A stretch of DNA of 50,235 nucleotides from IMG/VR virus record IMGVR_UViG_3300036854_000038, positions 1 to 50,235 of that record; one strand, written 5' to 3'. The notes below the pieces were generated by a model. That model worked only from the letters and a program-made list of their open reading frames with translations, ran no database searches and was not told the DNA's origin. Positions 23,174 through 40,960 of this stretch are shown here, one piece after another. Both the position numbers and the translations under genes were made by a program. Positions within the stretch are counted from its first letter, which is position 1; each line of letters starts with the position of its first letter. This DNA comes from a virus (lineage: Duplodnaviria; Caudoviricetes).

Positions 23174-23228
23174 TGTCGAGTCATGACTCTACGCTCTCCC
23201 TGGGATGCTGTCAAGGGATGACTTGACA
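23174..23228 (-). promoter_or_regulatory. Promoter TTGACA-17-TAGAGT with two 20-bp operators
   Basis: -35 at 23214-23209, -10 at 23191-23186; operators 23174-23193 and 23209-23228. Confidence 0.85.
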
Positions 23229-23468: not shown

Positions 23469-23523
23469 TGTCGAGGCATGACTCTACGCTCCCTCATGGA
23501 TGCTGTCAAGCCATCACTCTACG
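23469..23523 (-). promoter_or_regulatory. Promoter TTGACA-17-TAGAGT with two operators
   Basis: -35 at 23509-23504, -10 at 23486-23481; operators 23469-23488 and 23504-23523. Confidence 0.85.
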
Positions 23524-23531
23524 CACTTCTC

Positions 23532-23586
23532 TGTAGAGCCATCCCTTGACGCTCTCCTCTCCCACCTGTAGAGTCATGGCATGACA
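23532..23586 (+). promoter_or_regulatory. Promoter TTGACG-17-TAGAGT with two operators (leaderless)
   Basis: -35 at 23546, -10 at 23569, ATG 6 nt after the -10; operators 23532-23551 and 23567-23586. Confidence 0.85.
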
Positions 23587-23745
23587 GAGAGCCACGCGAC
23601 AGCGAAGCGCCAATGCCCACGGTGCGGACGGGACATCACCGTCGATGATGGCCGGCTCGAGCCAGGGCGGAAAGGCCTGCTGCTTCGCCATCGTGACCCA
23701 GCTCGAGGCTGGAAGCGGTGCCCGTACAGGGGGCGTGGCAAGTGA
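23581..23745 (+). CDS. Small zinc-finger-like protein
   Basis: MTESHATAKRQCPRCGR...LRH...RCPY; stop overlaps the next GTG. Confidence 0.65.
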   Translation: MTESHATAKRQCPRCGRDITVDDGRLEPGRKGLLLRHRDPARGWKRCPYRGRGK

Positions 23746-24782
23746 CGGCGGCGGTCCAGACCCGTTGTGCTGGGTGTGGCCATTTCGTGCGCCGCCGCGC
23801 GGACATCCTTGACCCCGAGTTCAATGAGCTTGCGCGGAGTGAGGAGGCCTACTCGCGTGAGTGGGAGGAGCATGATTGCCCGGCCCAGTACAGCGAGAAT
23901 GCGGCGCCGCGGCGTGGGGAGTATGAGGCGTACCTGGAGAGCCTTGACGTTGACGGGCTTGTGGAGGAGCTGGGGGAGGCTGGCGCGGCCGCGTACCTGG
24001 GTGTGACAGCTGAGACGGTCGACGCTCCCGAGACTGCGGCGGCACCGGTTGCTGCTGCTGCGGCTGTTGAGGCTGCGGTGCCCGAGGTTGAGGCGGTCAG
24101 CCTCAGCGAGCTCGTGCGGCGCATGGATGCGGCCGCGAAGCCTCCGACAGTCCGGCCGCGGCGGCGGGTGACTCCGGTCAGCGCCGAGGACTGGGATGCG
24201 ATCATGGGCGCCCGGGTGGTCGCTGAGGCGGAGCGGATCACCCGGGCGATACCGGCAGCGTGGTTGGAGCCCGTCACGCCTGAGCAGCTGCACCTACTGG
24301 GAGGCGACGATGGTGAGGAGCCGAGCTTACGGGCGCGCGCGCGTCGCGACAGCGCTGGAATGCGGCCAGCGGGTGGCCGACGCGATGGCCAGAAAGGACA
24401 GCGGGACGCCGGAGCAACGGGCCGCCCAAATCGTGGCCCGCAGCCAGGATCTCCGACACCACGACGGGCCGATCGTGCAGCTCGACTTGGACGGCGGAGC
24501 GACACCACTCCCGTCCGCCCCTTGCCCTGGCCCGACACTCCCCAAGGGGAGCGGCCGACAGCTCAGCCTCCCCCTGGCCGTGCCGGTCGTCTACCAGTCG
24601 CCAGCGTGGAACGGGACCGTCGAACAGCCCCCACTCGACCTCGCCGCGGACGGCGAGGGTTGCGGCTGAGTCGCCTGCTGCGCTGGTTGCAGCAGGACGA
24701 CCCACGCTTGACGCATCGGCTTGAGCGGACAGCGCGGGTGGTCGAGTGGGTTGAGCGGCTGTTCGTCGCCGACCCACACTAG
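23742..24782 (+). CDS. Hypothetical protein (acidic N-terminal half; C-terminal half doubtful)
   Basis: RCAGCGHFV start; second half overlaps another ORF (24310-24669). Confidence 0.5.
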   Translation: MTAAVQTRCAGCGHFVRRRADILDPEFNELARSEEAYSREWEEHDCPAQYSENAAPRRGEYEAYLESLDVDGLVEELGEAGAAAYLGVTAETVDAPETAAAPVAAAAAVEAAVPEVEAVSLSELVRRMDAAAKPPTVRPRRRVTPVSAEDWDAIMGARVVAEAERITRAIPAAWLEPVTPEQLHLLGGDDGEEPSLRARARRDSAGMRPAGGRRDGQKGQRDAGATGRPNRGPQPGSPTPRRADRAARLGRRSDTTPVRPLPWPDTPQGERPTAQPPPGRAGRLPVASVERDRRTAPTRPRRGRRGLRLSRLLRWLQQDDPRLTHRLERTARVVEWVERLFVADPH

Positions 24783-24787
24783 CAATC

Positions 24788-24842
24788 TGTAGAGGGATGG
24801 CTTGACACACCCTGCCCATTCATGTAGAGTCATGACACGACA
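24788..24842 (+). promoter_or_regulatory. Promoter TTGACA-17-TAGAGT with two operators
   Basis: -35 at 24802, -10 at 24825; operators 24788-24807 and 24823-24842. Confidence 0.85.
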
Positions 24843-25512: not shown

Positions 25513-25875
25513 ATGACCTACCGCAGAAGCTACGGGCGCCGGTCGAGTGCGCCGCGGCAGGGCCGCTGGATGGCACTTCGCTACGCGGGCACCTGCACCG
25601 CTGGCGAGACACTCGCCGCCGGGACCCGGGCGTTCTACGACCCGTCCGACCGGTCAGTCACGTGCACTGACCTGGAGCACGCCAAGGCGGCCGGGCTGAC
25701 AACGGAGAAGTGGCAAGGCTCGCCGACCAGCGGCAGCTATCAGACCGTGCTGTCCGACGTGCGCCGCGACACTGACGGCGTGGTCGTGGCGAACACGCGG
25801 TACGGCAGGCGGCGCGGCTACGAGTGGACCGGCAGCCGGTGCATCGACGCGCCGTGCTGCGGGTGCTGCGACTGA
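25513..25875 (+). CDS. Hypothetical protein with C-terminal RCIDAPCCGCC motif
   Basis: GGGGAG RBS; Cys cluster at the C-terminus. Confidence 0.7.
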   Translation: MTYRRSYGRRSSAPRQGRWMALRYAGTCTAGETLAAGTRAFYDPSDRSVTCTDLEHAKAAGLTTEKWQGSPTSGSYQTVLSDVRRDTDGVVVANTRYGRRRGYEWTGSRCIDAPCCGCCD

Positions 25876-25889
25876 CCAGGAGAAACACC

Positions 25890-26054
25890 GTGACTGATGA
25901 GGAGCTCGCCGAGCACATGCAACAGGTCCACGAGTGGTGGCCCATGGCGCCCGAGGTGGCCCGCAAGTTGCACGACCGCGACCACCGCCAGGCCATCAAT
26001 GGCACATACCGAGGACACCGCCACGACGACCAGGAGGAGGAGCAAGGATGCTGA
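25890..26054 (+). CDS. Small hypothetical protein
   Basis: AGGAG RBS + GTG. Confidence 0.55.
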   Translation: MTDEELAEHMQQVHEWWPMAPEVARKLHDRDHRQAINGTYRGHRHDDQEEEQGC

Positions 26055-26371
26055 CCAACACAACCGCCACGCTGGAGGAGCTCCAGGAGCTCGTGACCGC
26101 GGGCACGCACATCACCCTGTCGCGCCGGATGCCGGAGAGCACCCGGCCCGGGACCTTCTCGGGCGTGCTCAAGCAGGCCAGCGGGCCGTTCCCGCCCTAC
26201 GGCTTCGCCGTGTTGTGGCACGGCGACCAGGGCGAGCAGTCCTACCTCGCTCTGCCTCCCGACTGGGAATGGAGCATCGAGCGCACCGAGCACAGGCACA
26301 CCGACCTGCAAGAGCACGCGCACGACTACATCCAAGGCTCACGGGTGCTGATTCACCGCCACGCGAGCTGA
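26048..26371 (+). CDS. Hypothetical protein
   Basis: GGAGGAG RBS + ATG; stop lies 2 nt before hammerhead 1. Confidence 0.7.
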   Translation: MLTNTTATLEELQELVTAGTHITLSRRMPESTRPGTFSGVLKQASGPFPPYGFAVLWHGDQGEQSYLALPPDWEWSIERTEHRHTDLQEHAHDYIQGSRVLIHRHAS

Positions 26372-26373
26372 CA

Positions 26374-26427
26374 GGCCGAAACCGGCCGCCCGGCCGGTCC
26401 TAGCGTCAAGCGCTAGCTGATGAGGCC
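26374..26427 (+). ncRNA. Hammerhead ribozyme 1 (type II)
   Basis: GGCC-GAAA-CCGGCCG(CC)CGGCCGG-UC^-CUAGCG(UCAAG)CGCUAG-CUGAUGA-GGCC; all core nucleotides and three stems; predicted cut after C26399. Confidence 0.92.
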
Positions 26428-26458
26428 AGGCAGACCTCAAGCGAGGGAGGGCAGGGGA

Positions 26459-27529
26459 ATGGTCGAGATTATCCACACCAGGGCCGACGGGACCATGGCG
26501 CACGGCACCACCCGCGGCGATGGCAGCGCGCCGATCCTCAAGCGTGCCGGGTTCCGGTGGGCGCCGTCGCTCAAGACGTGGATTGTGCAGCAGTCCCGCG
26601 ACCGGGCCGTCAAAAGCTGGATTGTCGACGCGGCCGCCGAGGGGCTCCGCGCGGCCGGGTTCGAGGTCACCGTCTCGATCGACGACACCCCGCGCGCATT
26701 CGCGGAGGCCGAGGCCGAGCGTGCCGAGCGGATCAGCGAGCGCGCCGACCGGCTCGAGGGGCGCGCCGGGCGGGCCACCAGCGAGGCTGAGGCACGCTAC
26801 GCGGCCGCGCGCCGCGAGGCGGACCTGATCCCACCGGGCCAGCCGATCCTCGTCGGGCATCACTCCGAGCGTGGGCACCGCGCGGCGCTCAAGCGGATCG
26901 ACAACAACATGCGCCGCTCGATCGAGGCTGACCGCGCGGCGACCCACTACGAACGGGCCGCGAAGGTGGCCGGCCAGTACACCGCCCGCCGCGAGAGCCT
27001 CCCAACGACCCTGCGGCGGATCGCCAAACTCGAGGCGGAGGAGCGCAAAACCCGCCGGGACATGCAGCCGTGCCCGACGTCAGCACGGAAGGCGAAGGCC
27101 GGCAACGAGGGCCGCACGTTCACCTGCCCGCGCTGCTACAACGAGCAGACCATCGGGGCGGATCTGCTGGTGCCCGACCACGGCCGGCGGATCTCGCAGG
27201 CGACCGCGGATCAGCGCCTGGCGGAGCTCGCCGACGAGCTCGCCTACTGGCGCAAGGTGGTCGCCGACCAGGAGGAGGACGGCGCGAAGGTGTGGGGGCC
27301 GGCGGACTTCCGCCCGGGTGACCGGGTCCGGTACTGGGGCGGCTGGCGTGAGGTTCTCAAGGTCAACGCCAAGAGCCTCACCGTGCCATCCGGCTACTCC
27401 TGGGATGAGCGCCTCCCGTATGACGAGGTGCGCGGCCGGCGGGCGGCCGGCGACCCGGGCGGCCAGGTCGAGCACGTCGACCAGGAGGACGACGGGCCGG
27501 CCGACGAGTGCGACGGCGCCGACCGGTAG
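26459..27529 (+). CDS. DUF3560-like protein
   Basis: IPPGQPILVGHHSERGHR motif; N-terminal LKRAGFRWAPS..W; C-terminal SH3-like segment (DFRPGDRV...VLKVNAKSLTV). Confidence 0.85.
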   Translation: MVEIIHTRADGTMAHGTTRGDGSAPILKRAGFRWAPSLKTWIVQQSRDRAVKSWIVDAAAEGLRAAGFEVTVSIDDTPRAFAEAEAERAERISERADRLEGRAGRATSEAEARYAAARREADLIPPGQPILVGHHSERGHRAALKRIDNNMRRSIEADRAATHYERAAKVAGQYTARRESLPTTLRRIAKLEAEERKTRRDMQPCPTSARKAKAGNEGRTFTCPRCYNEQTIGADLLVPDHGRRISQATADQRLAELADELAYWRKVVADQEEDGAKVWGPADFRPGDRVRYWGGWREVLKVNAKSLTVPSGYSWDERLPYDEVRGRRAAGDPGGQVEHVDQEDDGPADECDGADR

Positions 27530-27586
27530 GCCGAAACGGCGCCCGGCCGGGTGCCGTCCGCGGGTAGGGCCCGCGCTGAGGAGGCC
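27529..27586 (+). ncRNA. Hammerhead ribozyme 2 (type II)
   Basis: GGCC-GAAA-CGGCGCCCG(GC)CGGGUGCCG-UC^-CGCGGG(UAGGG)CCCGCG-CUGAGGA-GGCC; predicted cut after C27558; loop AGGG can pair with CCCU at 27593-27596. Confidence 0.92.
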
Positions 27587-27612
27587 AGAGAGCCCTCACC
27601 AGAGGAGGAGCC

Positions 27613-27777
27613 GTGTACCTGTTCGCCGTGCTGATCGACGGGACCAGCGAGGCCGTCATCGTCGGGGCCGCCAGCAAGTCGCAGGCCATCGAGGCGGCCG
27701 GCCGGCTGCGACCCGGCGTCAACTTCGGCAAGACGTTTGTGCTGCTGACCAGCGACAACCACAGCCACGACTACTGA
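27613..27777 (+). CDS. Small hypothetical protein (54 aa)
   Basis: GGAGGAG RBS + GTG; MYLFAVLIDGTSEAVIVGAASKSQAIEAA... Confidence 0.65.
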   Translation: MYLFAVLIDGTSEAVIVGAASKSQAIEAAGRLRPGVNFGKTFVLLTSDNHSHDY

Positions 27778-27789
27778 GAAGGAGGCATC

Positions 27790-28047
27790 ATGCCCGAGAC
27801 CTACCCCGATGGCATCCCAATGGAGGCAATGACCGAACGTGACCCCGGCCTCGGCTCCAAACTCGCGGTCAACAGTGCAATCGCTTGCATGCGCGCGGTC
27901 GCCTACCACCGCGGCGCCGCCGAGACCTACGGGGCCGACACCACCAGCGGCGACAGCGGCATCCCGTCGCTGACACTGGCCGCGCAGTACACCGCCGAGG
28001 CGCAGGCGTGGGCGACCATCGCGCTCGCCATTCAGGCGGGACGCTAG
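27790..28047 (+). CDS. Hypothetical protein
   Basis: AAGGAGG RBS + ATG. Confidence 0.7.
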   Translation: MPETYPDGIPMEAMTERDPGLGSKLAVNSAIACMRAVAYHRGAAETYGADTTSGDSGIPSLTLAAQYTAEAQAWATIALAIQAGR

Positions 28048-28142
28048 CCGTGGCCATCGCCGGCCTTGCCCTCCAGGCCCTGCTGATCGTGGCGGTGGGG
28101 GCGCTGATCGTCCACAACGCCCGCATACCCCGCTGAGCCTCC

Positions 28143-28207
28143 GACCGGTAGGCGTCAAGGCTGTACTCGACGCCTACCGGTCAAGCATGTAAGGTCATGG
28201 CATGACA
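28143..28207 (+). promoter_or_regulatory. Hairpin plus promoter TCGACG-17-TAAGGT with two operators (leaderless)
   Basis: 14-bp inverted repeat 28143-28182; operators 28153-28172 and 28188-28207; ATG 6 nt after the -10. Confidence 0.75.
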
Positions 28208-39604: not shown

Positions 39605-40960
39605 TTGGAATCGTCCACGACCGCCGCAGTGGGCACGCGCCTGCTCGAACACTTCTCCGACCAGCTCCACCGTATCCCCCTAGGCTTCGGCCCCCGCCAC
39701 CTGGTCGCGCTGCTGATCCTGCTGGCCGTGGGGTACGTGGCTAGGCATGCACCGGACCCCCACGGCCAGCTGGCCGGTGCCCTGCCCGACTCGGGCAGCC
39801 TCCCAGACCCCGAGCTGTACATCGCCGGGCTGACCGGCGGCGGCCTGTGGGAGCGCTACAAGCTGACCATCTCCATGGACGGCCGTCACGAGCCGTCCAC
39901 CGTCGCCCAGTGGGGCGAGGTGTGGGACGACTGGCTCGTCTACCTGCACGCGGCCGGGTGCCGGCGCCGGCCGGGCCGCTGCGACCGTGGGGAGGGCTGC
40001 AAGGGCATCCCCTGGCAGCGCGCCCGGGAGCGGCACTTGAAGGCGTTCCTGGACCTGCCGTGCCGCAGCGGCCCCCGCAAGGGCATGGCCAAGACGGTCG
40101 CCACCAGGGCGGCCTACCTCAAGGCGATCAAGCCGGTGTACCAGTTCGCCGTCCGCAAGCGCATCCTGAGCCGCGACCCGTTCGCCGACGTCCGCCCACC
40201 CAAGGTCGGCGACGGGCTGGCTATCGCGTTCTCCCGCGACCAGCTCGCCAAGATCCTGACCGCCGCGGCCGGCCACGCCGACCGGCGGATCTACATCATG
40301 TGCTGGCTGGGCTACCACGGCCTGCGGTGCATGGAGATCGCCGGGTTGCGCCGCGAGCATGTCCGCCTGGACGACGAGCCGGTGCTGCTGGTGCACGGCA
40401 AGGGCAGCAACCGCCGGGAGGTCCCGGTGATGCGCCTGTTCGTACCGGTGCTGGCCGAGTGGACCCGGGACATGGGGACCTTCGACCCGCTGATCGTCGC
40501 CCACGACAACCAGTGCCGGCCGACCGCGCAGCCGCTCAGCCCCTCCCGGATCTCGGGGATGCTGAGCGACTTCATCCGCCACGACGCGGGCGTCGGCGGC
40601 AGCGCCCACCGGCTGCGGCACACCGCGGCGACGTTCATGCTCGACGAGGGCGACGGGGAGAACCTGCATCATGTCAGCCGGTTCCTCGGGCATGCCAGGC
40701 TCGACACGACGATGATCTACGTGCGCGCGCACCAGTGGAACGTCCGCAAGTGGGTCGACCGGATGCCGGACCCGGCTGACCCGACCCGCCGGCAGCCCCA
40801 GCCGCAGCGCCTCGGTGAGCTGCTCGGCGAGGCACTGCGGCAGACGCTCACCCCGGAGATGAGCCGGCGGCTCCGGGACCTCCCCGAGGACCTGGCCGCA
40901 ACCTACCGGCCGCTGCTGGAGCTTGGCCACCTGCTCGCAGCCGATCAGGCCGGCGGTTGA
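39605..40960 (+). CDS. int: Tyrosine integrase/recombinase
   Basis: Catalytic set GLRCMEI (R), HGKG (K), HRLRH (HxxR), LGH...TTMIY (H, Y); start uncertain. Confidence 0.9.
   Translation: MESSTTAAVGTRLLEHFSDQLHRIPLGFGPRHLVALLILLAVGYVARHAPDPHGQLAGALPDSGSLPDPELYIAGLTGGGLWERYKLTISMDGRHEPSTVAQWGEVWDDWLVYLHAAGCRRRPGRCDRGEGCKGIPWQRARERHLKAFLDLPCRSGPRKGMAKTVATRAAYLKAIKPVYQFAVRKRILSRDPFADVRPPKVGDGLAIAFSRDQLAKILTAAAGHADRRIYIMCWLGYHGLRCMEIAGLRREHVRLDDEPVLLVHGKGSNRREVPVMRLFVPVLAEWTRDMGTFDPLIVAHDNQCRPTAQPLSPSRISGMLSDFIRHDAGVGGSAHRLRHTAATFMLDEGDGENLHHVSRFLGHARLDTTMIYVRAHQWNVRKWVDRMPDPADPTRRQPQPQRLGELLGEALRQTLTPEMSRRLRDLPEDLAATYRPLLELGHLLAADQAGG

Follow-up and report, generated by a model that had tools for sequence, protein, structure and literature searches.

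The window analysed here is the complete 50,235-base viral record IMGVR_UViG_3300036854_000038 of IMG/VR (Duplodnaviria; Caudoviricetes), with a G+C content of about 70% and a CheckV completeness of 100%. Its plausible genes from about 24866 to about 30800 all lie on the + strand, and among them is a gene encoding a DUF3560 protein, flanked on each side by a motif with the form of a type II hammerhead ribozyme. The upstream motif is referred to as HH1 and the downstream motif as HH2; coordinates are given in Table 1. The initial annotation of this DNA had placed a full sense-strand hammerhead in each of the two gaps and had named the gene between them DUF3560. Both claims were borne out, the first by the sequence itself, by alignment with the Rfam model RF02276, by a count of pattern matches, and by a covariance model built here (R1), and the second by a match to Pfam PF12083 (E 2.1e-27).

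The elements of each motif follow one another in the order stem II 5' strand, GAAA, stem III hairpin, C17, stem I hairpin, CUGANGA, and stem II 3' strand, and both copies have the type II layout, in which stems I and III each end in a loop and stem II is open. The conserved core (C3 U4 G5 A6 N7 G8 A9, G12 A13 A14, A15.1-U16.1, and H17) is complete in both copies, reading CUGAUGA, GAAA, and U-C17 in HH1 and CUGAGGA, GAAA, and U-C17 in HH2. The core-adjacent pairs G10.1-C11.1, C1.1-G2.1, and A15.1-U16.1 are present in HH1 and HH2 alike; the criteria used for accepting the core and these pairs were those given in the article of Perreault et al. 2011 (PMC3088659). Stems I, II, and III measure 7, 4, and 7 base pairs (bp) in HH1 and 7, 4, and 9 bp in HH2. 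Every pair of stems I and III differs between the copies except the core-adjacent one, and all are still paired, so that the core and stem II alone are common to the two; the divergence of stems I and III with retention of pairing, core, and GGCC stem II had been noted earlier and is seen directly in the sequence.

HH1 begins 2 nucleotides (nt) past the TGA of the upstream open reading frame (ORF), and the TAG stop of the DUF3560 gene (27527-27529) has one G in common with HH2, namely the first base of stem II. These offsets of +2 and -1 agree with the earlier statement that each motif starts at or within 2 nt of the upstream stop codon. From the end of the motif to the next start codon there are 31 nt after HH1 and 26 nt after HH2. 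The window contains a gene-flanking cluster in the sense of at least two coding-strand hammerheads located in phage operon gaps around a gene.

Table 1. Positions of the two motifs, the neighbouring genes, and other features of the window
Feature	Position	Strand	Details and evidence
HH1, type II hammerhead	26374-26427	+	sequence, RF02276, R1, fold
HH1 stem II	5' strand 26374-26377; 3' strand 26424-26427		GGCC/GGCC
HH1 GAAA	26378-26381		
HH1 stem III	26381-26398		ACCGGCC/GGCCGGU, 7 bp, loop GCCC
HH1 C17	26399		predicted cleavage directly after
HH1 stem I	26400-26416		CUAGCGU/GCGCUAG, 6 Watson-Crick pairs and closing U.G
HH1 CUGAUGA	26417-26423		
HH1 3' tail	26428-26439	+	AGGCAGA-CCUCA; CCUCA at 26435-26439
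HH2, type II hammerhead	27529-27586	+	sequence, RF02276, R1, fold
HH2 stem II	5' strand 27529-27532; 3' strand 27583-27586		GGCC/GGCC
HH2 GAAA	27533-27536		
HH2 stem III	27536-27557		9 bp, loop GGCC
HH2 C17	27558		predicted cleavage site
HH2 stem I	27559-27575		CGCGGGU/GCCCGCG
HH2 CUGAGGA	27576-27582		
HH2 3' tail	27587-27598	+	AGAGAGC-CCUCA; sequence
DUF3560 gene	26459-27529	+	356 aa; ribosome-binding site GAGGGAGGG at 26443-26451; PF12083; third-position GC 0.92
Upstream ORF	25934-26371	+	up to 145 aa; TGA stop 26369-26371; third-position GC 0.79
Downstream small ORF	27613-27777	+	54 aa; GTG start; ribosome-binding site GAGGAGGAG; third-position GC 0.95
Promoter-like site TTGACA-17-TAGAGT	24802-24830	+	10/12 consensus match; candidate start of rightward early transcript
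Promoter-like sites identical to the 24802 site	23186-23214; 23481-23509	-	TTGACA-17-TAGAGT
Near-identical promoter-like site	23546-23574	+	TTGACG-17-TAGAGT
Integrase gene	39605-40960		

Tests of identity and family membership

A stemless pattern (CGAAA..GTC..CTGANGA) was matched twice in the window, both times on the + strand, and the two matches were HH1 and HH2. Shuffled sequences gave a mean of 0.14 matches, and 0 of 100 shuffles reached 2. When Rfam was applied to the whole window at gathering thresholds, 0 matches were returned. A local scan with RF02276 (Hammerhead_II) gave 29.5 bits for HH1 (E 0.0014) and 22.9 bits for HH2 (E 0.076), both below the gathering score of 37 bits. In both copies the alignment covered the whole model (positions 1-66 of 66) and kept the core in register; the additional stem II pairs of HH1 were treated as an insertion, and the tail matched little. 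In the scan with Rfam models that had been proposed as a check, Hammerhead_II aligned to both copies and neither reached the gathering score. The 4-bp stem II, together with the absence of an evident pseudoknot between loop I and the tail in HH1, probably explains the low scores. At E<=5, the scan of the whole window returned HH2, weak matches to five unrelated models (ctRNA_p42d, Mu-gpT-DE, and three snoRNA models), and no other class of ribozyme.

Related motifs were collected by scanning IMG/VR for the pattern GGCCGAAA..TC..CTGANGAGGCC, which matched at least 119 stretches. The listed loci and the window together contained 146 pattern starts, of which 115, the two of the window included, were taken as clean members with uninterrupted stems (stem III of at least 4 bp, stem I of at least 5 bp); by the same crude stem test the other 31 had bulged or mismatched stems. 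An alignment (A1) was made of 92 distinct hammerheads from other viral contigs, with the window copies excluded. Stem cells were paired in 98.1% of cases in A1, the rows of which had been pre-selected for paired stems, compared with 72.9% in shuffles (0 of 500 shuffles as high), and 12 of the 17 pairs showed changes on both sides.

The covariance model R1 was built from the 92 rows of A1 and run on the window with filters off. It scored HH1 at 65.7 bits (E 1e-16) and HH2 at 60.5 bits (E 3e-15), and the next match in the window at 16.1 bits; these scores are partly built in, as the search pattern was derived from the window's own motif and fixed the core and stem II of the model. Outside the search pattern, the family typically has an A before stem II and an A after it, both of which fit the window copies, and the G-U...G-C closure of stem I also fits the family (U.G in 78 of the 92 rows). 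On the evidence of their sequences, HH1 and HH2 were concluded to belong genuinely to a large family of type II hammerheads in phages. The frequency of hairpins in DNA of about 70% G+C would favour a chance resemblance in intergenic DNA, an explanation that is refuted by the shuffles with two stemless matches (none in 100), by the E values of R1, and by a reversed control of 766,396 bases in which a generic type II descriptor found 0 matches; its probability is negligible.

Hammerheads of this family also occur close together elsewhere. Adjacent same-strand pairs were found 25 times in 14 of the 119 loci listed, at spacings of 208-3169 nt, and the pair in the window is 1101 nt apart. Dense arrays in which nearly every small gene is bracketed were seen in L012:1130-5157, with 7 copies in 4 kb, and in L024:2913-4012, with 4 copies in 1.1 kb. 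The G+C content of the hammerhead loci listed ranges from 39 to 71%. The genes 3' of family hammerheads are mostly small and unannotated, and a scan of 127 proteins gave no recurring function for downstream genes (each Pfam family at most 2 times, each PHROGs family at most 3 times).

To assess the association with DUF3560, 160 loci with this gene (766,396 bases), taken from metagenomes and viral contigs, were scanned with the generic type II descriptor. A hammerhead was present in 2 of the 160 loci (L203 and L231) and the gene was bracketed in 0, in agreement with R1. Among the 119 hammerhead loci listed there were no DUF3560 homologues, and when 13 window proteins were compared with the hammerhead loci by tblastn the sole match was to L003, a locus without a hammerhead. 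The initial reading accordingly stands, on the sequence tests, as to type II hammerheads around DUF3560, and does not stand as to the specific tie between the two that it implied, since none of the DUF3560 homologues in the 160 loci was found flanked by ribozymes.

The closest relative of the DUF3560 gene is that of L203 (L203:2501-3562; 69% identity). The hammerhead of this locus (L203:351-403) has a compensated stem II, GGUC/GACC, scores 61 bits with R1, and is located 2.1 kb upstream of the DUF3560 gene, before a homologue of window gene 23718-24782. The hammerhead of L231 (L231:2416-2472) is unrelated to that of L203; it has stem II UGUC/GACA and a longer stem I, scores 23.7 bits with R1 (E 8e-4), and ends 29 nt before the start of a DUF3560 homologue of 43% identity. 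Given 2 hammerheads in 160 loci, this proximity may be a coincidence.

Predicted processing of the transcript

The most probable reading of the locus is that genuine type II hammerheads in a rightward early operon cut themselves and thereby uncouple the DUF3560 message from its neighbours; we consider this likely. Motif identity, family membership under the covariance model, and typical placement support it. Each motif would fold during transcription and would cleave itself 3' of C17, after 26399 in HH1 and after 27558 in HH2. A polycistronic RNA would be divided into three pieces, the first carrying the upstream genes, the second the DUF3560 gene only, and the third the downstream genes. The second piece would run from 26400 to 27558, which is 1159 nt, the distance between predicted cuts that had been given before.

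Owing to the type II layout, the cut has a closed stem immediately on each side, III upstream and I downstream. The RNA upstream of a cut would therefore terminate, 28-29 nt past the stop codon, in the hairpin of the G+C-rich stem III and carry a 2',3'-cyclic phosphate, and the RNA downstream would have its 5'-OH directly in the hairpin of stem I, 54-59 nt ahead of the start codon; the nature of these ends is that expected from established hammerhead chemistry. Because only the 4-bp stem II would join them, the cleavage products should separate easily. The amount, lifetime, and translation rate of the DUF3560 message could in this way be independent of those of its neighbours, an effect on message stability that we infer from the predicted cuts.

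The placement of the window copies is typical of the family. Among the 115 clean members listed, 80 start at -1 to +3 nt relative to a long-ORF stop codon, and such a stop lies no more than 40 nt upstream of 105. The commonest offsets are -1 (38 cases, in which TAG overlaps GGCC), 0 (16 cases), and +2 (17 cases). A start codon is located at most 120 nt downstream in 111 of the 115, at a median of 27 nt. The positions of HH1 (+2/31) and HH2 (-1/26) are thus of the two kinds seen most often. The main text of PMC3088659 contains the term 'stop codon' 0 times.

This abutment of stop codon and motif, seen throughout the family and in both window copies, would also suit a cleavage gated by translation, in which the terminating ribosome would cover stem II and GAAA and undo the fold of the motif, and cutting would take place only if the upstream ORF is poorly translated; regulated cleavage has been raised for phage hammerheads generally in the article of Perreault et al. 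(PMC3088659). The placement is equally well explained by the compactness of phage genomes and the conserved A before stem II, and co-transcriptional cleavage would likely precede the first ribosome, and we regard gating as unlikely. If gating were true, the fate of the message would be tied to ribosome traffic on the upstream ORF.

Self-cleavage, the favoured reading, was further weighed by folding. The minimum-energy fold of the exact HH1 54-mer is the hammerhead (-27.4 kcal/mol), as is that of the isolated HH2 motif (-34.8 to -36.3 kcal/mol). In stepwise folding stems III and I form first, and co-transcriptional cleavage is therefore plausible. The energy models used leave out the tertiary structure of the hammerhead core.

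Several results count against cleavage by HH1 and HH2, in addition to the Rfam scores below the gathering threshold and the pre-selection that entered A1 and R1. With the 3' AGGC added, an HH1 63-mer prefers a competing fold (-34.4 kcal/mol), and in a 154-nt context the competing fold of HH1 reaches -62.7 kcal/mol compared with -58.6 kcal/mol for the enforced hammerhead; for HH2 the corresponding gap in context is 3.0 kcal/mol. The competing fold of HH1 (26374-26431) consists of GGCCG/CGGCC together with a pairing of the stem III 3' strand with GGCC-AGGC. According to PMC3088659, in most type II hammerheads loop I forms a pseudoknot of at least 4 bp with the tail that follows stem II; this contact was required for fast cleavage in the construct tested there, and many hammerheads are without it. 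When the sequence was read by eye, no complement for such a pseudoknot was found in HH1, and in HH2 a possible 4-bp pseudoknot was seen between CCCU (27593-27596) and the loop I sequence AGGG (27566-27569). Finally, the DUF3560 gene of L203 has tight junctions and no adjoining hammerhead, and the arrangement of the window is therefore not under long-term conservation. The comparison of L203 and L231 indicates that hammerhead positions are gained and lost quickly between related phages.

The low Rfam scores, the more stable competing fold of HH1, the lack of a clear tertiary pseudoknot in HH1, and a nearest relative without motifs at the same positions would all suit motifs that have decayed or lost activity and now act only as hairpins between genes, for instance to block exonucleases, and do not cut. 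Such decay would strike the unpaired core first, and neither copy has a change at any of the thirteen core positions, although the stems have diverged completely. The R1 scores of 60-66 bits are like those of other family members, such as the L203 hammerhead at 61 bits. On this evidence we hold it quite unlikely that the motifs are relics.

Cleavage of active hammerheads could also be followed by ligation. The 5'-OH and cyclic-phosphate ends of the 1159-nt piece might be rejoined, by reversal of the hammerhead reaction or by an RtcB-type ligase, or the outer pieces might be joined with deletion of the gene. HH1 and HH2 share stem II, and their stems I and III are self-contained; as read from the sequence, the excised RNA, with the 5' half of HH2 at its 3' end and the 3' half of HH1 at its 5' end, could rebuild a complete hammerhead. 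Circular or spliced products were named as a possibility by Perreault et al. (PMC3088659), and paired hammerheads yield circular RNAs in retrozymes (PMC7761336). The GGCC stem II is pattern-defined in all 119 loci listed, so that its sharing is not special to the window pair, the 4 bp of stem II would clamp ends separated by 1159 nt only weakly, and Perreault et al. did not detect circular or spliced products in the systems reported in their article (PMC3088659). Products of either kind are very unlikely, and there is correspondingly little expectation that religation by a hybrid hammerhead, or by a host RtcB ligase, would give a circular, exonuclease-resistant, protein-coding phage mRNA.

The release of a linear DUF3560 message, in our analysis the likelier outcome, would accord with what has been described for related arrangements. 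Processing of a polycistronic transcript is, in our assessment, the standard reading of gene-bracketing hammerheads. Gene-flanking phage hammerheads have been known since 2011 (PMC3088659), and the window is a new example and not a new kind. The prophage clusters in the article of Perreault et al. likewise consist of same-strand type II hammerheads bracketing an individual gene in a phage operon, and the arrangement of the window is that of its Figure 3 and the accompanying text. That article already proposes processing into single-gene mRNAs and also notes that the flanked genes are variable, as in the family survey made here. Among its tandem arrangements three cleaved in vitro and one cleaved in E. 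coli, so that cleavage was shown there, whereas the cuts in the window copies are predicted. The two cases differ further in host lineage, the window being a high-GC, probably actinobacterial phage from soil, and in the bracketed gene, which is DUF3560 here and ardA or others there. In the published consensus stem II is very short and a pseudoknot comes after it; the window copies have a 4-bp stem II, and HH1 is without an obvious pseudoknot between loop I and the tail. The supplement of PMC3088659 (Dataset S1, Figures S1-S5) may already contain members of the GGCC family or actinophage examples.

In-vivo cleavage has been demonstrated for three type II hammerheads of Desulfovibrio vulgaris (Olzog et al. 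2021, PMC8782182). According to that article they are located beside hypothetical and phage-like genes, and two of them share a strand, with about 250 nt between them. Their 2',3'-cyclic-phosphate and 5'-OH ends were captured, whereas the ends in the window are predicted. Retrozymes and viroid-like RNAs resemble the window in that two hammerheads bound an excisable unit of about 1 kb (PMC7761336). As described there, retrozymes are eukaryotic, their hammerheads are of type I or III and lie in repeats, they are for the most part non-coding, and they have been shown to circularise; the unit in the window is a phage protein-coding gene, and its hammerheads are not repeats of each other. Direct repeats of the retrozyme type were accordingly rejected for HH1 and HH2.

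A 2019 review called for further work on the purpose of phage hammerheads (PMC6765202). The window offers a clean case, in which the complete genome of a temperate phage has a 1.07-kb gene between two type II hammerheads that are canonical and differ from each other, and L203, a near relative whose DUF3560 gene has no adjoining hammerheads, provides a natural comparison with and without them. The family survey adds rules relevant to mechanism, namely that the motifs typically start at the stop codon, that both cleavage products would be hairpin-ended, and that about a third of the relatives have a tail covarying with N7. As the arrangement was already known, these rules leave its classification unchanged.

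Sequences 3' of the motifs

Both hammerheads are followed at equal spacing by AG-N5-CCUCA, with the ribosome-binding site 4 nt further on. Both UGAGG of the core and GAGG of the ribosome-binding site are complementary to CCUCA. Activation of translation by cleavage was considered and is not supported by the folding, as the predicted probability of the ribosome-binding site being unpaired was 0.41-0.49 in precursor and product alike. Across the family, YCUC is weakly enriched, being present in 17 of 139 tails compared with 9 of 139 upstream controls.

A different tail was observed in 52 of the 139 distinct family hammerheads listed, in which 5 nt past stem II are the exact complement of the core CUGAN (for example L010:3340-3404, L014:4449-4521, and L079:2200-2273). 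The offset of this complement from stem II is 0 in 40 cases and 1 in 7. The tail covaries with N7: where N7 is C there are 33 GUCAG and 0 AUCAG, where it is U there are 18 AUCAG and 0 GUCAG, and where it is A there is 1 UUCAG. The resulting hairpin, CUGAN-GAGGCC-NUCAG, is incompatible with the active fold and could lock the RNA after cleavage or represent an off-state. As the tail does not follow loop I, it is not the published pseudoknot. Neither HH1 nor HH2 has it. No relevant literature on a core-sequestering tail was found in a search that extended to articles, and the supplement of PMC3088659, which was outside that search, may hold it.

Flanking genes, the DUF3560 protein, and the phage

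The coding frame upstream of HH1 was assigned on composition. Third-position GC is 0.79 in the 25934-26371 frame compared with 0.60 in the overlapping 25897-26403 frame, and the former is therefore taken as coding; its product matched no protein family. The ATG within the CUGAUGA of HH1 (26420-26422) is in frame with the DUF3560 ORF, and ORF finders extend the gene to 26420. Because third-position GC is only 0.62 in 26420-26458 compared with 0.92 in the DUF3560 gene, 26459 is the likelier start. The small ORF downstream of HH2 (27613-27777) had no Pfam or PHROG match.

An AlphaFold model of the DUF3560 protein had a mean predicted local distance difference test score of 91.8. It shows an N-terminal alpha/beta domain, long helices that include the DUF3560 part, a short strand-containing stretch at about residues 220-231, and a small C-terminal beta domain. 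A Foldseek search of the model against PDB gave no match at E<=0.001, a profile search of PDB sequences had no result with E under 0.1, and PADLOC gave no match for the gene.

Among 500 homologues of the DUF3560 protein (E<=1e-10), those with named sources came from Streptomyces, Frankia, Kitasatospora, and Actinomadura, and the host is therefore probably an actinobacterium. Genes for the major head protein, tape measure, and integrase are present, with head and tape-measure genes on the - strand, and no tRNA genes were found in the 50,235 bases. Public sequencing runs listed as containing the phage sequence comprise one of soil-metagenome DNA, which may be its source, and none of RNA. The phage is temperate, high-GC, and from soil. 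A near-identity search of 25800-28200 against 50,697 GenBank phage records gave no match.

Between 22000 and 32000 a single terminator-like site was found, on the - strand at 24411-24399, and none on the + strand. In the same interval there are 5 promoter-like sites, compared with 0.5 expected from shuffles. The site at 24802 had been proposed as the promoter of the transcript that would be cut; its match to the consensus holds, and as that match is the evidence for it, it is treated here as a candidate. The promoter-like sites around 23.2-24.8 kb point both ways, an arrangement that resembles a divergent early or immunity control region.

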